Positions 23,449-31,331 of a stretch of DNA of 64,000 nt are shown in pieces. Source of the stretch: Planctomycetes bacterium UBA1146. Its GTDB lineage: Bacteria > Planctomycetota > UBA8108. The translations under genes and the position numbers were made by a program. Location of the stretch: assembly GCA_963579555.1 (NCBI GenBank), contig CAUZHA010000005.1:9938-73937 (forward strand). The letters are read 5' to 3'. The notes beneath the pieces were generated by a model. That model was not told where the DNA came from. It did not search any database and saw only the letters and a program-made list of their open reading frames with translations. Position 1 is the stretch's first letter. Each line of letters starts with the position of its first letter.

Positions 23449-25458
23449 TCAGTTCTGCCGGGAAGCTTCGCGGCGCAGTCGCTGGAGACTTTGCTGCATG
23501 CGCGAACGAGCGGCCTCATCTCTCTCCTGGCTGACGATGTTCTCGAGCTGGGGGAGAGATCCGACATTGTTGCGCCGCGCGAGAATTTCAGCCGCCTGGG
23601 ATCTCATATGCGGAGATGGATCACTTCCGGCGATTTGAAGGAAGAAATTGCTCGCTGTCTGGTTCTGTGAACTGGAGCCTGAGTGGATACCCCAGAGGAT
23701 GCTGTGACGGTTTTCACCATCTTTATGCACGTTGGGGTTGGAGAGGATCTCCCTGGCTTGCCGTATTCCATCATCGTTTCTCCCGAGCATTCGAGCCATC
23801 TCGTGGGCGGCTTCGCGGTCCGTTTCACGCCAGAGCTGCTCAGCGATATTGGATAGTCCCGCGCCATCTCTCTGGCGACTGAGCAGCCGCGCGTAGGCTA
23901 CCCTCTCAGCGGCGCTCTCGGCATTCTGAAAGAGGCTTCCGGCCTGTTCGGCGACAAGATCCGGATAGAGCCTCTCAAGCGACCGGCCCAGGTTCCTGGC
24001 GATATCGCTGTCGTTTTCCTTGGAGATGAGGTCCAGGAGCCTTTCGGGGGGCAGACCATTGCGGTTGCCCTCCTCGATGGCGCGTGCGATGGCGCGTCTC
24101 TGCTCGGGGTGAGAGCTCGATTCGAGAATATCTAGCATCGCTCCCATGGTCGCCCTGTCGGCGTTACGGCTCAGCCCGCGAGCCAGGGTCTCTACAATGT
24201 CTTCCCGGTCGCTGTTGGCGAGGAGGTCCATCATCGCGGCGGTTGCCTCCTGTCCTGAGGCCTCTCTGAGAGCGCGGGCCAGGGCTCGATCGTTCAATTC
24301 AAACTCAGGGTCGGCGGCGGCCTCGAGCAGCAGCTCGAGTCCTTCCTTGCCGCCGTTGCGGGCCATAGCGCGAGCTATGGATTCCTGCGCGCGCGGGTCG
24401 TCGGGAACCTCCCTGAGCGCATCGGCGAGGAAGTCCGTGTCGAGATCGTGAGAGAGGTTTTCGATTCCTTCCGCGACCAGTCTTTGCGACATGCCGGGCG
24501 GCTGTTCTTTCAGAAGTTTCATGAGTGTGTCAGGATTGCCATCCTCGAGGGACGCTCTGCCAATGCTTTCCATTAGTGAGCGCTTCTGCTCCCGGCTCCA
24601 GTCGTTGTCCATCAGATCGATCATGGCCCCCAGCTCCTCCGTTCCGGCCATGGAGCCCATGGCCTCAAAGAGGACTTGTGGCTTGATGTCAGGGCGGTCT
24701 TCGAGCAGGCCGATGAGAGAATCGACTCCCTCGTCTCCGTGCATCTGTCCGTAGGCGCGCGCGGCCTTCGATTGGAGCTCCCGGTGCGGGTCCGAGGCGA
24801 TGAAATCGGCAAGTTCCGGGGCGACCTCCTTGGCCCGTTCAGGCGGCAGCCTCTCGAGCGAGTCAAGGATCTCACGGCGATTGGCCAGGCTGTTTTCACT
24901 GTCGTCGAGAAAGCCCATGACAATCTCGACGCCGCGCTGGTCCCCGGCCATGATGAGCGCCTGGGTTAACGCCTGGAGATGTTGAGAATTTTCCTCGGTG
25001 AGGAGTCCCTGCAGCAGGAGGAGCTCTTCTTCGCTCAGGGGTTCGCCGCTGGATTCGGCCAGCTCTTCGAGCATTTCCCCGATGCTGTCATTCTCGCCGT
25101 TGGCAAGGGCTGTCTTGAGGTCGGAGAGAATTTCACTTCGGGGAGCTTCTTTTTCAGCCGGCTCCGAGTTTTCTTTCTCATCTGATGAGCTGGCGCTATT
25201 GCGCGAGGGAGCTTTGCGCTTGCGGGCTATTTTCCGATTCCCGGTGGGATCACCTGGACTCTTTGAGGTTGCCGACACACCGGCCTGGGCCGATATGATC
25301 TTCGACCGGGACTGGTTCTCAATATCTTCGAGGGAATCCTTGAGGATATAGCCGGAAAGAAATCCCATGCTGAAAAGGAAGAGGGCAGACAGAAGCAGGC
25401 CCAGGTACATTCTTTTAGCTATCATTAGCATCAAACCAGTTTCGATTCTTGTCGTCAC
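23449..25458 (-). CDS. Membrane-anchored HEAT/ARM-like repeat protein
   Basis: N-terminal TM, low-complexity linker, repeated R..AA..L helical units; start uncertain (25458-25424). Confidence 0.7.
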   Translation of the reverse strand: MTTRIETGLMLMIAKRMYLGLLLSALFLFSMGFLSGYILKDSLEDIENQSRSKIISAQAGVSATSKSPGDPTGNRKIARKRKAPSRNSASSSDEKENSEPAEKEAPRSEILSDLKTALANGENDSIGEMLEELAESSGEPLSEEELLLLQGLLTEENSQHLQALTQALIMAGDQRGVEIVMGFLDDSENSLANRREILDSLERLPPERAKEVAPELADFIASDPHRELQSKAARAYGQMHGDEGVDSLIGLLEDRPDIKPQVLFEAMGSMAGTEELGAMIDLMDNDWSREQKRSLMESIGRASLEDGNPDTLMKLLKEQPPGMSQRLVAEGIENLSHDLDTDFLADALREVPDDPRAQESIARAMARNGGKEGLELLLEAAADPEFELNDRALARALREASGQEATAAMMDLLANSDREDIVETLARGLSRNADRATMGAMLDILESSSHPEQRRAIARAIEEGNRNGLPPERLLDLISKENDSDIARNLGRSLERLYPDLVAEQAGSLFQNAESAAERVAYARLLSRQRDGAGLSNIAEQLWRETDREAAHEMARMLGRNDDGIRQAREILSNPNVHKDGENRHSILWGIHSGSSSQNQTASNFFLQIAGSDPSPHMRSQAAEILARRNNVGSLPQLENIVSQERDEAARSRMQQSLQRLRREASRQN

Positions 25459-25605
25459 AGGGTCAAGCCATTTACCTGATAGTCGTTCAGTCCGTTCCGT
25501 AATTGGACAAGTATCTTTCGAATTTATCCCTGGAACCGAGCGAACTTGCGGGCATCGGCTAGGATTTCCCGATGCGGCCGGTTTCCCCTGGCGCAGGGCT
25601 CTTGT

Positions 25606-25634
25606 TTGCGAATAACGCGGCCCGGGGTTATAAT
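25606..25634 (+). promoter_or_regulatory. Sigma70-type promoter, probably giving a leaderless mRNA
   Basis: TTGCGA(25606-11)-N17-TATAAT(25629-34); ATG at 25641 is 6 nt after the -10 box, no SD. Confidence 0.65.
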
Positions 25635-25640
25635 TCCGCC

Positions 25641-26150
25641 ATGAAGTTGAAGCTTGCCAAGGGTATTTCCTTTACCATCGACCATCGACTGGTCGTTGTT
25701 TGCCTGGTCCTGGCCCACATGATTTCACATCCCGTTCCCGCACGGGATTTGCATTATTGTTCTCTCAAAGGAGAACTCATCCAGAAGGGGAGTGGTTATC
25801 GCGGCTCATCCTCTTCCGGGCTCTGTTGCGCCGGGCAATCGGCCCCAGGGCCTGCCTCCTGCTGTTCGGGAGCGGAAGAAAAGAAAGAAATCCCGGCTGA
25901 CGGAGCCTCCATCTCCTGGCCTCCCTGCGCTGGATGCTGCCGCGAATACAGCCTGGCTGGCATCGATCCTCTCGTTGCAGCGTCCGTCTCTCCAGCCGCC
26001 GGTCTTGAGATGCTCCGGCGCGATATCGCCTCCGGGGCTGTCGAAAGTTGGGCTTTCCTGCCCCGGCCGGCCGTCTCGTGGCTCACCGAGCCGTCCGATC
26101 TTCCAGGCGTGCTTCCCATCTTTCTGCTCACCTGCCGCTTCCTGATCTGA
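25641..26150 (+). CDS. Cys-rich HYC_CC_PP-like protein (type found upstream of metal transport genes)
   Basis: Hydrophobic N-terminus, LHYC, three CC pairs, C-terminal PIFLLTCRFLI. Confidence 0.6.
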   Translation: MKLKLAKGISFTIDHRLVVVCLVLAHMISHPVPARDLHYCSLKGELIQKGSGYRGSSSSGLCCAGQSAPGPASCCSGAEEKKEIPADGASISWPPCAGCCREYSLAGIDPLVAASVSPAAGLEMLRRDIASGAVESWAFLPRPAVSWLTEPSDLPGVLPIFLLTCRFLI

Positions 26151-26262
26151 TCCCGGGATCTGTTTTCGATTCGAGGTCCGAGGAGGAATCCCCGGGCTTG
26201 CAGGTCGGAGATAAGCTGTCGGTTAGATGACTGAAGATCAGGGATTTGTAGAGGCGTATGCC

Positions 26263-27210
26263 ATGCGTATTTTAAAACGATTGAGAATCCATCAGGCGGC
26301 CATGCTCGCGGCGCTTGTCTTGCCGGCCGGCATTTCGGCCCAGGATGGAGGAATCGAGGTCTTGTCCGGCCACACAATTTTTGAATCGGGCAGCCGGATT
26401 TCTCTGAGCCACATTTATTCCAGTCGAGGCCGCTTGTTCAGCGGTTCCGACGAGATTCCGAATTCCTCCGACAGCTCCATGGAGGAGAATCGCGCTGTCC
26501 TCGGCTTCAATTATGGCCTGCTGCCGGATTTGTCGTTGAGTCTCCTGCTTCCGGTTCTCCAGAAGGAATCCAGCAGCGAGACCCCGCTGGGAGTGAGAGA
26601 GCGAAATCGCAGCGAAGGACTCGGAGATATGGCCCTGCTTGGCAAGTACCGGTTTTTCAGCGAGTACTGGGAGCAGAGCGCCTTTCATGTTTCCGCGATC
26701 GGTGGACTGGAGCTGCCGACAGGTTCAACGGAGGAACGTGATGGGACGGAATTCCTGCCCTTCTCCATGCAGCCCGGTTCCGGGTCGCTGGATCCGATCG
26801 CCGGCCTTGCGCTGACGCTGAGCACCGGAAGGTTTCGCTTTGACACGCATGCGATCTATAAGGCCAACAACGAGGGGAGCCGTGAATTTTCCGAGGGGGA
26901 CTTCTTTGCCATCAGCGGCAGCTTCGCCTATCGCTTTTATCATGCCCAATACCCCGGTCCATCGGCGAGCGCGAAGATCAGCTTGAGCTGGCGACATGAA
27001 GACCCTGATGAACTCAGCGGGATTGATCGGGACAATACCGGCCTGCGGGAATTGAGGCTTCGAGCCGGGTTGACCTACCATCCTTATCCTGAAATTGACC
27101 TGGTCGCCCTGGTCGAGGTGCCCGTTTATGGAAATTACAAGGCCGACGCGGGGGCGGGGCAGCTTGCCCTTGATGTGCGAACCTTTTTTGGTTTCGGAAT
27201 CCGTTTTTAA
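26263..27210 (+). CDS. Outer-membrane beta-barrel 'transporter' (MetA-pathway/phenol-degradation-like family)
   Basis: Signal peptide; GLGD..L.GKYRF, GLELPTG, QPGSGS.D; C-terminal FGIRF barrel signal; start 26227-26323. Confidence 0.75.
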   Translation: MRILKRLRIHQAAMLAALVLPAGISAQDGGIEVLSGHTIFESGSRISLSHIYSSRGRLFSGSDEIPNSSDSSMEENRAVLGFNYGLLPDLSLSLLLPVLQKESSSETPLGVRERNRSEGLGDMALLGKYRFFSEYWEQSAFHVSAIGGLELPTGSTEERDGTEFLPFSMQPGSGSLDPIAGLALTLSTGRFRFDTHAIYKANNEGSREFSEGDFFAISGSFAYRFYHAQYPGPSASAKISLSWRHEDPDELSGIDRDNTGLRELRLRAGLTYHPYPEIDLVALVEVPVYGNYKADAGAGQLALDVRTFFGFGIRF

Positions 27211-27224
27211 TCAGAAAGAAAACC

Positions 27225-27731
27225 ATGAATAAAGTGATGACTGTCGTTTCCGGATTTTTCCTCGCCGGCCTCTTCGGGTGCGCGAGCGAGCCCGAGATTC
27301 TTAACCCGGATGGCAAGGCCTACGCGATTCTCCATCTCGCCTTTGATTCGTGAATATGAAACGATTTGGCCTTCGGATTGGTGAAGGCCTTGAAGCGCCA
27401 GGTCGGCGCTCACGCGGTCGCGCTCGATACGATTGATGGAATTGCCAGTTACAGTCTCCTGGAGCCGAGGAAGATCGATTTCAAGGAGCTCGATAAAGCC
27501 TGTAAAAGCGCCAGCTACCAGCTCGTCGAAATAAAGCTCGAGGCCTGGGGCGATGTCGTTTCCGTTGCGGGCAAGGATGGCAGGTATCTGAAGATACGAG
27601 GGACCGGACAGTTGTTCGGGATATCCGGGAACCTTCCCGAAGGTAAGGTCGATGCCCTGGTTGGCGAGATTACCGGCTGGGATGGAGACAGTCCCATGTT
27701 CAATCCGGTAAAGCCGGCATCTGGCGGGTAG
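27225..27731 (+). CDS. Putative selenoprotein: HMA-like lipoprotein with two in-frame UGA codons (U43-I-U45)
   Basis: ATG 27225 and lipobox LFGC are in frame with ORF 27366-27731 through TGA 27351 and TGA 27357; the following AFGLVKALKRQVG..V.LD...G.A..L.KA...A.Y resembles the HMA fold. Confidence 0.65.
27368..27389 (+). promoter_or_regulatory. Candidate bacterial SECIS hairpin
   Basis: GGCCTTC-ggattggt-GAAGGCC; loop starts with G, 21 and 15 nt after the two UGAs. Confidence 0.55.
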
Positions 27732-27807
27732 TGAAGGCGACGGTCTTTTCATGAGAGAAAGACCTGAGGTGCCGGGTAGGCGCTACTGTTCAATCCGGTA
27801 AGGCCGG
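27697..27807 (+). repeat. 21-bp direct repeat, 90 bp apart
   Basis: tgttcaatccggtaaagccgg (27697-27717) vs tgttcaatccggtaaggccgg (27787-27807), 1 mismatch. Confidence 0.8.
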
Positions 27808-27853
27808 AGTCGCCGGGGAAGTTCAAGTTGGAGCGGTTGTCGTGTACCGTTGG

Positions 27854-29341
27854 TCAGGGCAGCCTGGAGGCCAGGTCCGATTCGATACGGGAGTGTTCCG
27901 TCTGGCCCGCAAGGTTCTTCCATTCGTTCGGATCCTTCGACAGGTCGTAGAGCTCCCGGGTTCCATCCTCGTAGCGAATCAGCCGCCAGGAACGCGAGCG
28001 GACGGCGTGCCGGCCTTTCCCGAAGGTGGTGACCACCGCGCGTCCGGTGGCGGCCCCTGGATTGTCGAGGACTGGCCTGAGCGAGCGTCCATCCAGGCCC
28101 TTGCGTCCGGGCAACCCCGCCAGGTCGATGAGGGTGGGGTAGAGATCAAGCAGGCTGACGGGCTCGGGGCTTCGCTGTCCCACCCATTTTTTTACGCCTG
28201 GCTGACTGGCGGGCGGGACGATCACCAGGGGGACGCGTGTCGACCGTTCCCATCCGGTCCATTTTCCCCAATGCTGTTTTTCTCCGAGGTGCCACCCGTG
28301 GTCACTCCACAGAACGATCAGCGTATTCCCGGCGTGGGGCCCTTTTTCTAAAGCTTCAAGAAGCCGTCCGATCTGCGCATCGACAAAGGTGACACAGGCG
28401 AGGTAGGAGCGTACGGCCGCCTTCCACTGGGCATGTCTCAGGACGGTGGCGTGGGCGCCGGCCGTCACCGCCTCGAGGGCTGTCTTCCTGCCGGCATCCT
28501 CGAGGTCGTCAAGGTCTTTCTCTGCCGTCTGGGGCAGCGCGATAGAGTTCTCATGATAGCCTTCGAAATACTTTCGGGGGGCGAAGAGCGGTATGTGGGG
28601 GCGGTAGTAACCGACAGCGAGGAAGAAGGGTTTGTCTTTTTTCTTCCGAAGCCTTTCGCAGGCCCAGGCCGTTATTTTTCCATCTCCCATCTCATCGTCT
28701 GCGATATCAAAGGGGCCCCAGTCGAAGGATTCTCCCTTGGTCTCTTTCGGGGCGCGGTCGCTCGGCATGCGGTTGAGCGGCAGGACGATGGTCTTGCCGC
28801 CGAACTCGATGACGTGGCGCGGCTCTTTGCCTTTGCCTGGCAGCTCTTTTTTCGTATAGGTAACCTGTTTTTTGCTGAGGGGACTCCAGCGTTGCTCTGT
28901 GGAGAAGAACTTTTCAAACAGGCCGGAGCTGGCCTTGTGGAGCAGCTTTCCGGTGCCGAAGGTCGAATATCCATTCTTTGCGAAGTGCTGGGGCAGGTAG
29001 ACCAGCCCCGGTTTCTTTTTCTGTATGTTCTCTCCATTTCCATAGATGCCGGTGGTGGTCGGCAGGAGTCCGCTGAAGAGCGCCGCTCGAGACGGACCGC
29101 AGAGAGGCGCGGCGCAGTGGGCGTTGGTGAAGACGGTGCCGCGGGCGGCCAGGCGGTCCATGTTAGGCGTTCTGACCTGGGGATGTCCCCCGAGGAAGCC
29201 TACCCAGTCATTCAGGTCATCGATGGCGATGAAAAGGACGTTCGGCTGGCTGGCCGTCGCATCGCCTGAGGCCTGCGAGCTGAAGCCGCACGCCAACAAC
29301 GCGCTGGCCAGAAGGGCTGATCCGATCAGGTCCCTGGTCAT
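27854..29341 (-). CDS. Sulfatase (iduronate-2-sulfatase/choline-sulfatase-like S1)
   Basis: PNVLFIAIDDL, CGPSR formylglycine motif, GKLLH, RPH.P, SDHGWHLGEK; signal peptide. Confidence 0.93.
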   Translation of the reverse strand: MTRDLIGSALLASALLACGFSSQASGDATASQPNVLFIAIDDLNDWVGFLGGHPQVRTPNMDRLAARGTVFTNAHCAAPLCGPSRAALFSGLLPTTTGIYGNGENIQKKKPGLVYLPQHFAKNGYSTFGTGKLLHKASSGLFEKFFSTEQRWSPLSKKQVTYTKKELPGKGKEPRHVIEFGGKTIVLPLNRMPSDRAPKETKGESFDWGPFDIADDEMGDGKITAWACERLRKKKDKPFFLAVGYYRPHIPLFAPRKYFEGYHENSIALPQTAEKDLDDLEDAGRKTALEAVTAGAHATVLRHAQWKAAVRSYLACVTFVDAQIGRLLEALEKGPHAGNTLIVLWSDHGWHLGEKQHWGKWTGWERSTRVPLVIVPPASQPGVKKWVGQRSPEPVSLLDLYPTLIDLAGLPGRKGLDGRSLRPVLDNPGAATGRAVVTTFGKGRHAVRSRSWRLIRYEDGTRELYDLSKDPNEWKNLAGQTEHSRIESDLASRLP

Positions 29342-29609
29342 TATTATTCTCCCGACGGTTAGATGAAGGTCCAGAAGGACAGTTTCCATACACCGGGGCT
29401 CGTTCTCCAGTTAATAAAAAGGGTGCTATCCTGAGAGTACAAATTACCGGAGATGGGATTTATACTCAGGCTCTGGGCCTGCTGGATTGTCAGTCAGGGC
29501 AATTATTCAGAACCAAAGTCGGCTGCCGGGGTTCAAGTCCCCGCGTCATTTCGGCGCAACCGTACGCTGGCACTTTTAGGAGGCCGGATTTTTTCCCCGG
29601 ACCAGATCC

Positions 29610-31331
29610 ATGATCACCAGTTCTTCAGCTTGCAGCTTTCGTGCCGCGCACCGCGGCGCCTCTCCTTCCCGGGGCCTGGCCGTCCTGAGGTTACTGGTCG
29701 TCCTGGGGTTACTGGCCGCCGTGGCCTGGTTGCCGAGGCGTTTGCAGGCGCAGGAGAGCTTTGTCAGGGGAGATGCCAATGTCGATGCTTCCGTGGACCT
29801 CAGCGATGGGGTGCTCATCCTGCAGTATCTTTTCCAGGGAGGGCGGCAGCTTGACTGTCTCGACTCAGGCGATGCCGATGACAGCGGTAACCTTGACCTG
29901 AGCGATGCCGTCTACGATTTCAACTACCTGTTCCTCGGGGGAAGACCGCCGCCGGCTCCCTTCGCCGGCTGCGGTGAAGATCCGACGGCGGACGGCCTGG
30001 GTTGCGAGAGCTACGACCTCTGTGATGACAAGCCGCCGCCTCCTGTAAAGGGCGGGCGGAATATACTGGTCATCATCTCCGACGATCTGGGGGCGGACTC
30101 CGCCGCCTGCTACGGAGATGCGGGAGCTTTCGCTGCGACTCCGAATATCGAATCGCTGTGTCAGAGCGGCGTGGTTTTTCGAAACGTCTGGGCGAATCCT
30201 CTCTGTTCGCCTACCAGGGCCTCGATGTTGACCGGCCGCTATGGTTTCAGGACCGGCGTCGGCAACCTGGTGAACAACAACGGCGGAGGCCTGCCGAATT
30301 CGGAATTCACGATTCCCGAGGCGCTGGATGCCAATCCCGACCTGGGCTACGCCCATGCCTGCATCGGGAAATGGCATCTCAACGACAACTCCAATGGAGG
30401 CAACCGCCATCCGAACCTGGCCGGGTTTTCCCATTATTCCGGCGGTCTGCGCGGAGCGATCAGTGACTACAACTCCTGGCCGAAGGTGGTAAATGGCCAG
30501 CGGCGTAACGTGACCAATTATGCCACCACCGAGAACGTAGATGACGCGATCGATTGGCTCAACGCCCGGGATGGCCCCTGGTTCCTGTGGCTGGCCTTCA
30601 ATGCTCCCCATACTCCTCTGCATCTGCCACCTGAAGGACTTCACAGTCATGACAACCTGACAGGTACGGCCGCGGATATCGCCAACAGACCTCGGGAGTA
30701 CTTCGGGGCCATGATCGAGGCGATGGACAGCGAGATCGGCAGGCTGTGGGCTGCAATCGGCCCCGAGATGATGGCCAATACCGATGTCATCTATCTTGGC
30801 GACAACGGCACGGGCAGGACGAACGCTCCTGCGGGGATCTCAACCAGGTCCGGCAAGGGAAGCCTCTACGAGGGCGGGATCCATGTCCCCCTTGTCATCG
30901 CAGGGCCGAGCGTGGCCGATGGGGGCCGCGAGGTCGAAGGCCTGGTCGACCTGACCGATATTTACGCGACGGTCGTCGAGCTTGCCGGCGGCGATATGGA
31001 CAGCACCCTGCCGGCCGGGGTGGAGGTGGACTCCGTCAGCCTCCTGCCATACCTCGTTGACCCGCAGGCGGAGGATCTGCGCCCCTGGGCCTTTACCCAG
31101 CTCCTCGGCGAGGGAGGCCGGCCCGGCAACATGAACACCAGGGGGAATACGATCCGCGATGAGCGCTACAAGCTGATACGGTTCCTCAATGACACCGAGG
31201 AATTCTACGATCTGCAGGCTGACCCTCGGGAACGCAGCAATCTGGCCGCGGGAGCGCTCGTGGGCGATGAGCTGGCGCGATATGAGAACCTTGCCGCGAT
31301 CATGACTGACCTGCTCTCATCTGAAGAGTAA
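29610..31331 (+). CDS. Dockerin + sulfatase fusion
   Basis: FVRGDAN..DADDSG dockerin after signal peptide; NILVIISDD, CSPTR, GKWHL, GDNG. Confidence 0.9.
   Translation: MITSSSACSFRAAHRGASPSRGLAVLRLLVVLGLLAAVAWLPRRLQAQESFVRGDANVDASVDLSDGVLILQYLFQGGRQLDCLDSGDADDSGNLDLSDAVYDFNYLFLGGRPPPAPFAGCGEDPTADGLGCESYDLCDDKPPPPVKGGRNILVIISDDLGADSAACYGDAGAFAATPNIESLCQSGVVFRNVWANPLCSPTRASMLTGRYGFRTGVGNLVNNNGGGLPNSEFTIPEALDANPDLGYAHACIGKWHLNDNSNGGNRHPNLAGFSHYSGGLRGAISDYNSWPKVVNGQRRNVTNYATTENVDDAIDWLNARDGPWFLWLAFNAPHTPLHLPPEGLHSHDNLTGTAADIANRPREYFGAMIEAMDSEIGRLWAAIGPEMMANTDVIYLGDNGTGRTNAPAGISTRSGKGSLYEGGIHVPLVIAGPSVADGGREVEGLVDLTDIYATVVELAGGDMDSTLPAGVEVDSVSLLPYLVDPQAEDLRPWAFTQLLGEGGRPGNMNTRGNTIRDERYKLIRFLNDTEEFYDLQADPRERSNLAAGALVGDELARYENLAAIMTDLLSSEE

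Follow-up and report, generated by a model that had tools for sequence, protein, structure and literature searches.

A predicted double-selenocysteine lipoprotein family of marine Planctomycetota with a U-x-U site in an HMA-like domain and two conserved hairpins after its paired UGA codons

Double selenoproteins of the UxxU type, with two selenocysteine (Sec, U) residues in one short motif, are represented in the accessible text of two reviews by Prx-like proteins, NF041115, FmdB-family proteins and hydrogenases (PMC9312934, PMC13188914). NF041115 carries the name 'UxxU_metal_bind' metal-binding (seleno)protein, and the same reviews enter it as a 'putative mercuric reductase' with a UxxU motif and two Sec. 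A U-x-U form of a rhodanese-related sulfurtransferase was reported from an Olavius symbiont metagenome, its second Sec being described, in the accessible part of that paper, as a variant of a single-Sec family (PMC1976440). Here we analyze a 64,000-nucleotide stretch of DNA from the Planctomycetes bacterium UBA1146 (contig CAUZHA010000005.1, positions 9,938 to 73,937; hereafter the window), in which positions 27225-27731 hold what is, on the sequence evidence, a real, unannotated double-Sec lipoprotein gene belonging to a widespread family of marine Planctomycetota.

The gene is a single frame of 168 codons that runs from ATG 27225 through TGA (27351-27353), ATA and TGA (27357-27359) to TAG at 27729-27731. 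Translation table 11 splits it into two open reading frames (ORFs), 27225-27353 and 27366-27731; a preliminary description of this DNA had read them as one frame with a lipoprotein signal continuing through TGA-ATA-TGA, and we reproduced its coordinates exactly. The N-terminus encoded from ATG 27225 is MNKVMTVVSGFFLAGLFGC, with Cys19 inside a lipobox-like LFGC, and with TGA read as U the surroundings of U43 and U45 are ...LAFDS-U-I-U-NDLAFGLVKALKR... The features within the gene are the following.

27225-27731, + strand: complete predicted selenoprotein gene of 168 codons, TGA read as Sec at codons 43 and 45, TAG stop
27225-27281, + strand: lipoprotein-type signal peptide ending in LFGC, Cys19 the predicted lipidated residue (pattern-based, by eye)
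27321-27524, + strand: HMA-like ferredoxin-fold domain, beta-alpha-beta-beta-alpha-beta, residues about 33-100, with U43 and U45 in the beta1-alpha1 loop
27351-27353, + strand: first in-frame UGA (Sec43), aligned to the Met of the HMA motif GMxCxxC
27357-27359, + strand: second in-frame UGA (Sec45), aligned to the first Cys of the HMA CxxC
27368-27389, + strand: hairpin 1, 7-bp stem and 8-nt loop GGAUUGGU, a selenocysteine insertion sequence (SECIS) candidate by position
27394-27410, + strand: hairpin 2, 6-bp G+C-rich stem (27394-27399/27405-27410) with loop AGGUC, directly 3' of hairpin 1
27522-27713, + strand: C-terminal five-stranded beta domain, OB-fold-like, with the invariant Gln129 (TGQ motif)

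Like the window protein, NF041115 has an HMA-type domain, two close Sec in the metal loop and predicted metal binding. The window motif differs in being U-x-U, shifted by two residues with the second classical ligand lost, and the window protein differs in its lipoprotein signal, its additional OB-like domain (168 aa in all, where the model has 74 positions) and its linkage to an outer-membrane barrel gene. It does not match the NF041115 model at E <= 1 (cut-off 95 bits, for a single UxxU domain of ~74 aa); the locus L019, from a U-x-x-U branch of the family, matches that model weakly (32.9 bits, E 5e-8) and also matches the CopZ model weakly, below its cut-off. The MerP model (TIGR02052, cut-off 92.55 bits) is likewise not matched by the window protein and gives 24.1 bits with L019, and no mer genes are conserved nearby. 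MerP is an extracytoplasmic protein. CopZ, Atx1 and MerP (PF00403) share with the window protein the beta-alpha-beta-beta-alpha-beta fold (TMt 0.73-0.80) and a ligand loop in the same place, whereas the window protein has S-U-I-U-N-D in place of GMxCxxC, Sec, a predicted lipid anchor, a second domain and no Pfam HMA match. A set of secreted Cys-type proteins with an HMA domain followed by a C-terminal beta domain (alignment A6; for example P0137 and P0142) is homologous over both domains, and the Cys/non-Sec loci L022 and L023 share the upstream barrel gene with the window family. Unlike that family, the Cys-type proteins have a canonical CxxC, no in-frame TGA and, in several members, an ordinary signal peptide without a lipobox, and the hairpin pair is not formed at the Cys-type locus L023 or the more distant Cys-type locus L021.

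The other double-Sec systems are further away. As far as its accessible description goes, the U-x-U rhodanese-related protein is unrelated to the window protein in fold and chemistry (PMC1976440). UXXU Group 4 [NiFeSe] hydrogenases resemble the window gene in having two UGAs a few codons apart with one SECIS possibly serving both; in the accessible text they are cytoplasmic Ni-Fe enzymes with three-residue spacing and a single SECIS-like stem-loop, against two hairpins in the window (PMC13582414). The term 'UxU' does not occur in the accessible portions of two selenoprotein reviews or of the GOS paper, and a literature search of listings and text passages turned up no publication describing a selenoprotein of HMA or U-x-U type from Planctomycetota. 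Table S9 of PMC4807772, which according to the accessible part of that paper lists selenoprotein candidates of two planctomycetes, could list a member. What is new here is a widespread double-Sec family that is not covered by a model, in which a shifted ligand pair goes together with a predicted lipid anchor, an added domain, a fixed barrel partner and paired hairpins; it adds a conserved family of double selenoproteins to the prokaryotic selenoproteome.

That the TGAs are read through is supported by their conservation. A six-frame search reading through stops in 401 Planctomycetota genomes gave 22 matches from 21 genomes. Exactly two in-frame TGAs are present in 18 of these, another has three, counting its stop, and the remaining three have none; 17 of the 19 double-TGA matches read U-x-U and two read U-x-x-U in the same loop, and none of the 22 has a U-x-C or C-x-U form. 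The motif F[DE]S-U-I-U-ND[KA]AFGL occurs at 16 of the genome-match loci and at L002, a single locus found when the genome contigs were searched with the downstream ORF, while L024 has G-U-T-U-NE, and L019 and L020, which make up the U-x-x-U branch, have G[IV]T-U-P[MV]-U. Relatives keep the frame, the length and both TGAs, and in every translated double-TGA locus an in-frame signal peptide ending in a lipobox-like Cys lies upstream of the motif, and coding conservation is found on both sides of the UGAs. The preliminary description had argued that two nonsense mutations at this site were unlikely to be chance; the TGAs are indeed kept in 19 of 22 homologous places across the 401 genomes, together with the signal peptide it had proposed.

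Metagenomes extend this picture. A DNA motif built from the family loci, which demanded both TGAs and so gauges abundance rather than conservation, retrieved 66 metagenome contigs, 61 of them family members and five chance matches. Wherever such a contig extends far enough, an in-frame lipoprotein signal lies upstream, with equivalent [..][GAS]C signal ends. For the RNA and TGA-invariance figures we used a gap-free alignment of 56 distinct 78-nt sequences, in which both TGAs and the stretch TGAA..TGAAACGA are invariant and the codon before UGA1 varies freely. Searching the metagenome contigs with the motif of the U-x-U alignment (A4) in Cys codons gave 51 stretches and no relatives, a result that rules out at most relatives with exactly C-I-C-N-D-[KAL]-A-F.

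Independent assemblies also read TGA, rather than TGC or TGG, at both codons, which argues against an assembly error. Contig X5, from an independent DNA run (27156-27652), and the RNA-library contigs X7 (27275-27514) and X9 (27246-27396) cover both TGAs with 0 differences. In run X4 no contig bridges the TGAs and X9 is partly uncovered, neither of which was used for a conclusion.

The genome carries the machinery that the preliminary description had named as a prerequisite. SelA (468 bits), SelD (301 bits) and the winged-helix domain of SelB are present in the assembly, which is 92.6% complete, and selC is represented by one tRNA-Sec, the sole tRNA in the assembly with anticodon UCA; ordinary tRNA-Ser account for the next-best Rfam tRNA-Sec matches, and no tRNA-ReC-like gene turned up in this 92.6% complete assembly. 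TGA is the commonest stop codon, ending 735 of 1174 open frames of at least 500 codons, and 11 of the 22 family genes themselves terminate in TGA. With the only UCA tRNA being tRNA-Sec, these figures led us to reject a genome-wide reassignment of TGA.

Gene callers and family libraries currently overlook the family. A protein search gave 28 relatives (P0002-P0029), all of 115-124 aa and covering only the part after the TGAs, and these begin at differing residues with differing start codons, as expected from gene callers that stop at a TGA. In a profile search of 1.84 billion representatives there were 3260 matches at E <= 1e-3 and 289 at E <= 1e-10, ordinary HMA proteins included. Among the best 150 (P0030-P0179), 102 start just past the U-x-U, 31, most of them Cys-type, span the motif, and the rest consist of 16 long multi-HMA proteins plus one of another kind. 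Homologs starting at 27366 had been named beforehand as a result that would tell against read-through; the database homologs that 'start' past the motif are gene-caller truncations without a conserved start codon. The window protein itself (P0001) matches no Pfam or NCBIfam model at E <= 1.

We next consider the protein. An AlphaFold2 (AF2) model of the joined protein, built from a 22-sequence alignment, has a mean pLDDT of 88.4 and a pTM of 0.80, and strand 1, which is encoded upstream of the TGAs, joins the modelled sheet. Along with the in-frame upstream signal peptide and the lipobox Cys, which is invariant (C19) across the 17 U-x-U sequences of A4, this argues that the whole is one coding frame; the lipobox was judged by eye and lipidation is predicted. 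The best Foldseek matches in the PDB are CCS, CopZ, MerP, Atx1 and ZntA, with E-values of 5e-3 to 0.1, since half of the model is left unaligned. CopZ (6ff2/2qif) superposes with TMt 0.78-0.80 and a root-mean-square deviation of 2.1-2.3 A over 67 columns, and MerP (1osd) with TMt 0.73. In the predicted structure the HMA fold covers residues 34-100, and its ligand loop, which holds U43 and U45, joins strand 1 to helix 1.

Profile comparison showed the family to be homologous to bona fide HMA proteins. With hhalign, the U-x-U-only alignment A4 matched the 13 two-domain Cys-type relatives of A6 at 99.3% (E 1e-20) over 128 columns spanning both domains, placing S-U-I-U-N-D-K-A-F-G-L over G-M-a-C-P-F-C-A-y-G-v. 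Two of the three A6 members scanned pass the Pfam HMA cut-off of 24.8 bits (P0137 with 47 and P0142 with 43.5) and the third, P0038, falls just under it at 22 bits. A profile of all 22 sequences (A3) also matches HMA domains in the PDB, including those of ATP7B (2.6e-16), MerP (4e-5) and CopA. The alignment proposed in the preliminary description, in which U43 takes the place of the Met in GMxCxxC, U45 that of the first Cys and Leu that of the second, therefore holds. The two-Cys motif itself is gone: the family reads S-U-I-U-N-D-[K/A/L/M/T/S], the second Cys having given way to Leu in the window and, among relatives seen, to Lys, Ala, Met, Thr or Ser.

Several relatives have Cys at one or both of the Sec positions. 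The U45 position is Cys in the Cys-type relatives, which have the canonical G[ML]xCPFC (full motif G[ML]xCPFCA[YF]G); Cys stands at both U positions in P0095 (C-N-C-K-D-C), the C-x-C form whose existence had been raised beforehand, and at the U43 position in P0128 and P0155 (C-T-S). P0096 (C-S-I-C) is a Cys form of the U-x-x-U branch. Some relatives (P0044, P0088, P0118, P0128, P0155), reading P-M-Y, P-A-S, G-I-S or C-T-S, keep both domains; these have lost one or both ligands or never had them.

The C-terminal domain modelled alone (AF2 pLDDT 87.4) has five strands, and its Foldseek matches are to the OB folds of IF1, RPA, the LysRS N-domain and the NlpE C-domain, all at E >= 0.16; we call this predicted domain OB-like and claim no more. 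Gln129 is invariant in both A3 and A4. E. coli NlpE is an outer-membrane lipoprotein with a C-terminal OB-fold domain, with which the C-terminal model aligns at TMq 0.56-0.60 (2z4h/2z4i). The match is not significant (E 0.26-0.56), the N-domain is different and there is no sequence relationship, so we regard this as a resemblance only. In many members (L008, L009, L011, L014, L015, L016) a hairpin of the C-terminal domain carries a CxxC (CDSC, CAAC, CEDC, CAEC), which could serve as a second site, for metal or for structure; from the clade of the window this CxxC has been lost (SVAGKDGRY).

Two adjacent RNA hairpins follow the UGAs. Hairpin 1, GGCCTTC/GGATTGGT/GAAGGCC, begins 14 nt past UGA1 and 8 nt past UGA2. 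It is the 7-bp hairpin with a G-initiated loop that the preliminary description had pointed out, and we find it at 27368-27389 with a loop beginning GG; the distance of this GG to the U of the UGA is 24 nt for UGA1 and 18 nt for UGA2. At L010, L011, L015, L024, L019 and L020, other sequences fold a hairpin at the same position. Taken alone, the folding energy of 27345-27420 is modest (RNAfold -29.7 kcal/mol, z -2.15, with 4 of 200 shuffles as stable or better). Hairpin 2 was absent from the preliminary description despite its stronger conservation. Its six inner pairs form in all 56 sequences, and compensatory changes are seen at five of the six (6/7 of the whole helix), some of them linking an amino-acid change to a synonymous one, as in CGA...GTC versus CGG...GCC. 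Its second loop base, G60, is invariant though the codon varies (CAG, CGG, CTG), and the loop resembles that of a hairpin in the genome's SelW-like gene.

Taking the two hairpins together, 87% of cells pair across the 56 sequences, as against 31-48% when the 3' partners are slid. None of 500 shuffles matched the observed pairing, the both-side-changed pair and cell counts, or the covariation score, the tally of further pair types was equalled in 4 of 500, and the 18-sequence set gave a similar result. Neither hairpin is folded by L021 or L023, the two Cys-type loci examined. In three other selenoprotein candidates of this genome (loops AGUCU, AGGCU and GUC; listed below) the loop G lies 20-28 nt from the U of the UGA by hand count. 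From these distances and the covariation, hairpin 1 has the position of a SECIS and hairpin 2 has a SECIS-like loop and covariation.

A single neighbor accompanies the gene throughout the family. An ORF for an outer-membrane beta-barrel ends 14 nt before the selenoprotein start, and a smaller Cys-rich ORF lies upstream of it.

26227-27210, + strand: outer-membrane beta-barrel gene (Phenol_MetA_deg, Pfam PF13557, E 1.1e-10), a 327-codon ORF
25641-26150, + strand: small Cys-rich ORF preceding the barrel gene (called as 25572-26150; MKLKL at 25641 is its likely start)

The barrel gene is directly upstream at 18 of 18 U-x-U genome loci and at L019, L022 and L023; L021 gives no match and the L020 contig ends 69 nt upstream. 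Among the metagenome loci it is found at 53 of 61, including all 48 with >600 nt of upstream sequence. The partner barrels (alignment A7) have a mature N-terminus AQ[DE]GGIE[VI]F[AS]GETLF right after the signal peptide and ~40 invariant residues, and they belong to no curated family beyond the weak Phenol_MetA_deg match. A search for conserved neighbors across the loci found nothing shared beyond the barrel and the selenoprotein, a strict pairing that gives this barrel family its first functional lead. The Cys-rich ORF occurs only in loci of the same genus, at 40-53% identity. It has about nine conserved Cys (HYCS, CC, CC, CxxCC), a signal- or TM-like N-terminus and a C-terminal ...SCRFLI, with no Pfam or NCBIfam match. 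A metal-binding partner specific to the genus is one possible role for it; how it fits into the module is uncertain.

The explanation that we consider probable joins these observations as follows. SelB and Sec-tRNA(Sec) would decode both UGAs, at codons 43 and 45, as Sec, directed by the downstream hairpins. The mature lipoprotein would be anchored at Cys19 and consist of a diverged HMA domain followed by the OB-like beta domain. Within the classical metal loop (S-U-I-U-N-D) that joins strand 1 to helix 1, the ligand pair would have shifted from Cys(0)/Cys(+3) to Sec(-2)/Sec(0), and the two selenolates may form a bidentate site for a soft metal ion such as Cu(I), Hg(II), Cd(II) or similar. Working with the adjacent barrel, the lipoprotein could capture metal crossing the outer membrane or hand metal over. 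We accordingly read the product as a putative lipoprotein metallochaperone of HMA descent. Sec insertion at both codons, the assignment of the hairpins to the UGAs and lipidation are what we infer from the conserved features above. A metal function is suggested by the fold family, the position of the loop, the named metal-binding UxxU relatives and the genus-specific Cys-rich neighbor, and the identity of the metal and the direction of its transfer are conjectured on the same footing; gene order alone points to contact between lipoprotein and barrel. On this explanation an HMA metal site rebuilt from CxxC to U-x-U would be a natural test of paired selenolates in an oxidizing envelope, one that bears on the metal affinity or redox chemistry of selenolates two residues apart.

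We raise more tentatively, as a possibility of low probability, that hairpins 1 and 2 act as tandem SECIS elements for the two UGAs, which are six bases apart. Hairpin 2 may then hold a second SelB/Sec-tRNA complex ready and spare the wait for reloading before the second UGA. If this is true, the tandem hairpins would be the first natural two-SECIS solution for adjacent Sec codons in bacteria, and the product would be a bis-selenolate outer-membrane metal trap used with a dedicated barrel by oligotrophic-ocean Planctomycetota. In its accessible text, the UXXU hydrogenase paper (2026) poses the same two-UGA question and suggests a single SECIS (PMC13582414). The preliminary description, too, had raised one SECIS for both UGAs, an idea that may or may not hold given the two conserved hairpins. 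With 56 sequences and two covarying hairpins at fixed distances, the present family is a good natural system for that question.

Several observations weigh against the double-Sec, metal-site explanation or soften its support. The window protein does not reach the gathering score of Pfam HMA (PF00403), with no match at E <= 1; the profile of the 17 U-x-U members (A4) finds nothing better than E 0.34 in the PDB; and the alignment given to AF2 included canonical HMA-type relatives. Because there is no direct Pfam, NCBIfam or U-x-U-profile PDB match, the HMA link rests on profile-profile comparison and predicted fold, which back the 'HMA-like' of the preliminary description even though the Pfam model is not reached. 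Relatives without Cys or Sec at the U positions exist (P0044, with G-I-S, P0088 and P0118), so the U-x-U site is dispensable to the fold family. As to the RNA, 83% of cells are paired in hairpin 1 across the 56 sequences; its invariant loop GG also belongs to the codon of Gly51, a residue that is invariant and shared with the Cys-type family, so that coding constraint could account for it. The loop G of hairpin 2 lies 50 and 44 nt from the UGAs, further than in the other candidates, and an Rfam search over 27300-27460 gave no match at E <= 1 and two unrelated small RNA families up to E 10. SelA is present in 18 of 18 genomes with a double-TGA gene versus 298 of the 401 sampled, a co-occurrence that is consistent with Sec but weak, as 74% of the sample has SelA. 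The metatranscriptome contigs X7 and X9 suggest that the gene is transcribed, with the reservation that an RNA library may contain DNA. No P-type ATPase, mer or cus genes are conserved nearby, and the barrel family is without an established substrate.

The main rival to a metal site accepts both Sec and takes the U-x-U as a redox-active diselenide or selenol pair in an envelope oxidoreductase, which might reduce a substrate or metal(loid) passing the barrel or carry out selenol-disulfide exchange. CxC motifs can be redox-active, and the classical second ligand of the HMA CxxC is lost here, unlike in a standard metallochaperone site. Most prokaryotic selenoproteins are thought to be redox-active, many with UxxC or CxxU, according to the accessible text of two papers (PMC9312934, PMC2398784), and the sole U-x-U motif that we found in print, in a partly accessible source, sits in a sulfur/redox enzyme, the rhodanese-related sulfurtransferase (PMC1976440). 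We nevertheless think a redox role unlikely: the fold and the homologous family are HMA metallochaperone-like and not thioredoxin-like, the Sec pair occupies what is the metal-binding loop of CopZ and MerP, the nearest double-Sec relative known (NF041115) is named as metal-binding, and no conserved reductase or thioredoxin-like partner lies nearby.

Two further alternatives dispute the decoding itself. The UGAs might be recoded without both becoming Sec, either as Cys through a tRNA-ReC-like tRNA and a SECIS or as Trp or Cys by near-cognate tRNAs, giving a mixed C/U site. No demonstration is known of two Sec insertions two codons apart from one SECIS, and tRNA-ReC-like tRNAs are described, in the accessible text on UXXU hydrogenases, as enriched in UXXU-motif genomes, where either UGA may read Cys (PMC13582414). 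Mixed recoding is hard to reconcile with the single selC-like tRNA of the 92.6% complete assembly, the next matches being tRNA-Ser, and with invariant TGAs and no U-x-C or C-x-U among the 22 matches, which would be odd if Cys were equivalent; we consider it very unlikely. That there is no functional read-through at all, the locus being a doubly nonsense-mutated pseudogene, misassembled or in fact two separate genes (a leader of 42 codons followed by an ORF from TTG 27366), is close to refuted and retains almost no probability in our view. It would fit the two ORFs of table 11, the splitting of the gene by every gene caller and the 102 of the best 150 representatives that begin past the motif. 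Yet the same TGAs recur across many genera with protein conservation on both sides, the called 'starts' vary in codon and position, the sequence before the TGAs encodes strand 1 of the fold and the independent contigs agree; cross-genome conservation and those contigs are the grounds on which we reject a pseudogene or assembly error.

Some minor observations concern the surroundings of the gene. Flanking the module are two sulfatase genes (PF00884) and one for a HEAT-repeat protein, at 27854-29389 (-), 29610-31331 (+) and 23449-25458 (-), which are kept within the genus only and seem to have no relation to it. Antisense ORFs that recur within the barrel gene, which is G+C-rich, were taken as artefacts. 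A 36-nt direct repeat at 27697-27732 and 27787-27822 (78% identity, 90 nt apart, a multiple of three) copies the last codons of the selenoprotein gene (MFNPVKPASGG*) into the downstream spacer, as might be left behind by a duplication of the 3' end or a shift of the stop; the C-termini of relatives vary in length.

Elsewhere in the genome (G000) there are six other single-TGA selenoprotein candidates.

C113, 11857-12048, - strand: single-TGA selenoprotein candidate
C57, 17100-17501, + strand: single-TGA selenoprotein candidate
C1, 2561-2914, - strand: single-TGA selenoprotein candidate
C28, 19795-20058, + strand: single-TGA selenoprotein candidate
C28, 33119-33574, + strand: single-TGA selenoprotein candidate
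C2, 52698-53021, - strand: single-TGA selenoprotein candidate

Their motifs are typical ones, namely a SelW-like CVQU, a Prx FVU, two UGPC, one UPPF and a GPx RUGLT, and the organism appears to be rich in selenoproteins. Several of the candidates have small G+C-rich hairpins 3' of the TGA, with loops AGUCU, AGGCU or GUC.

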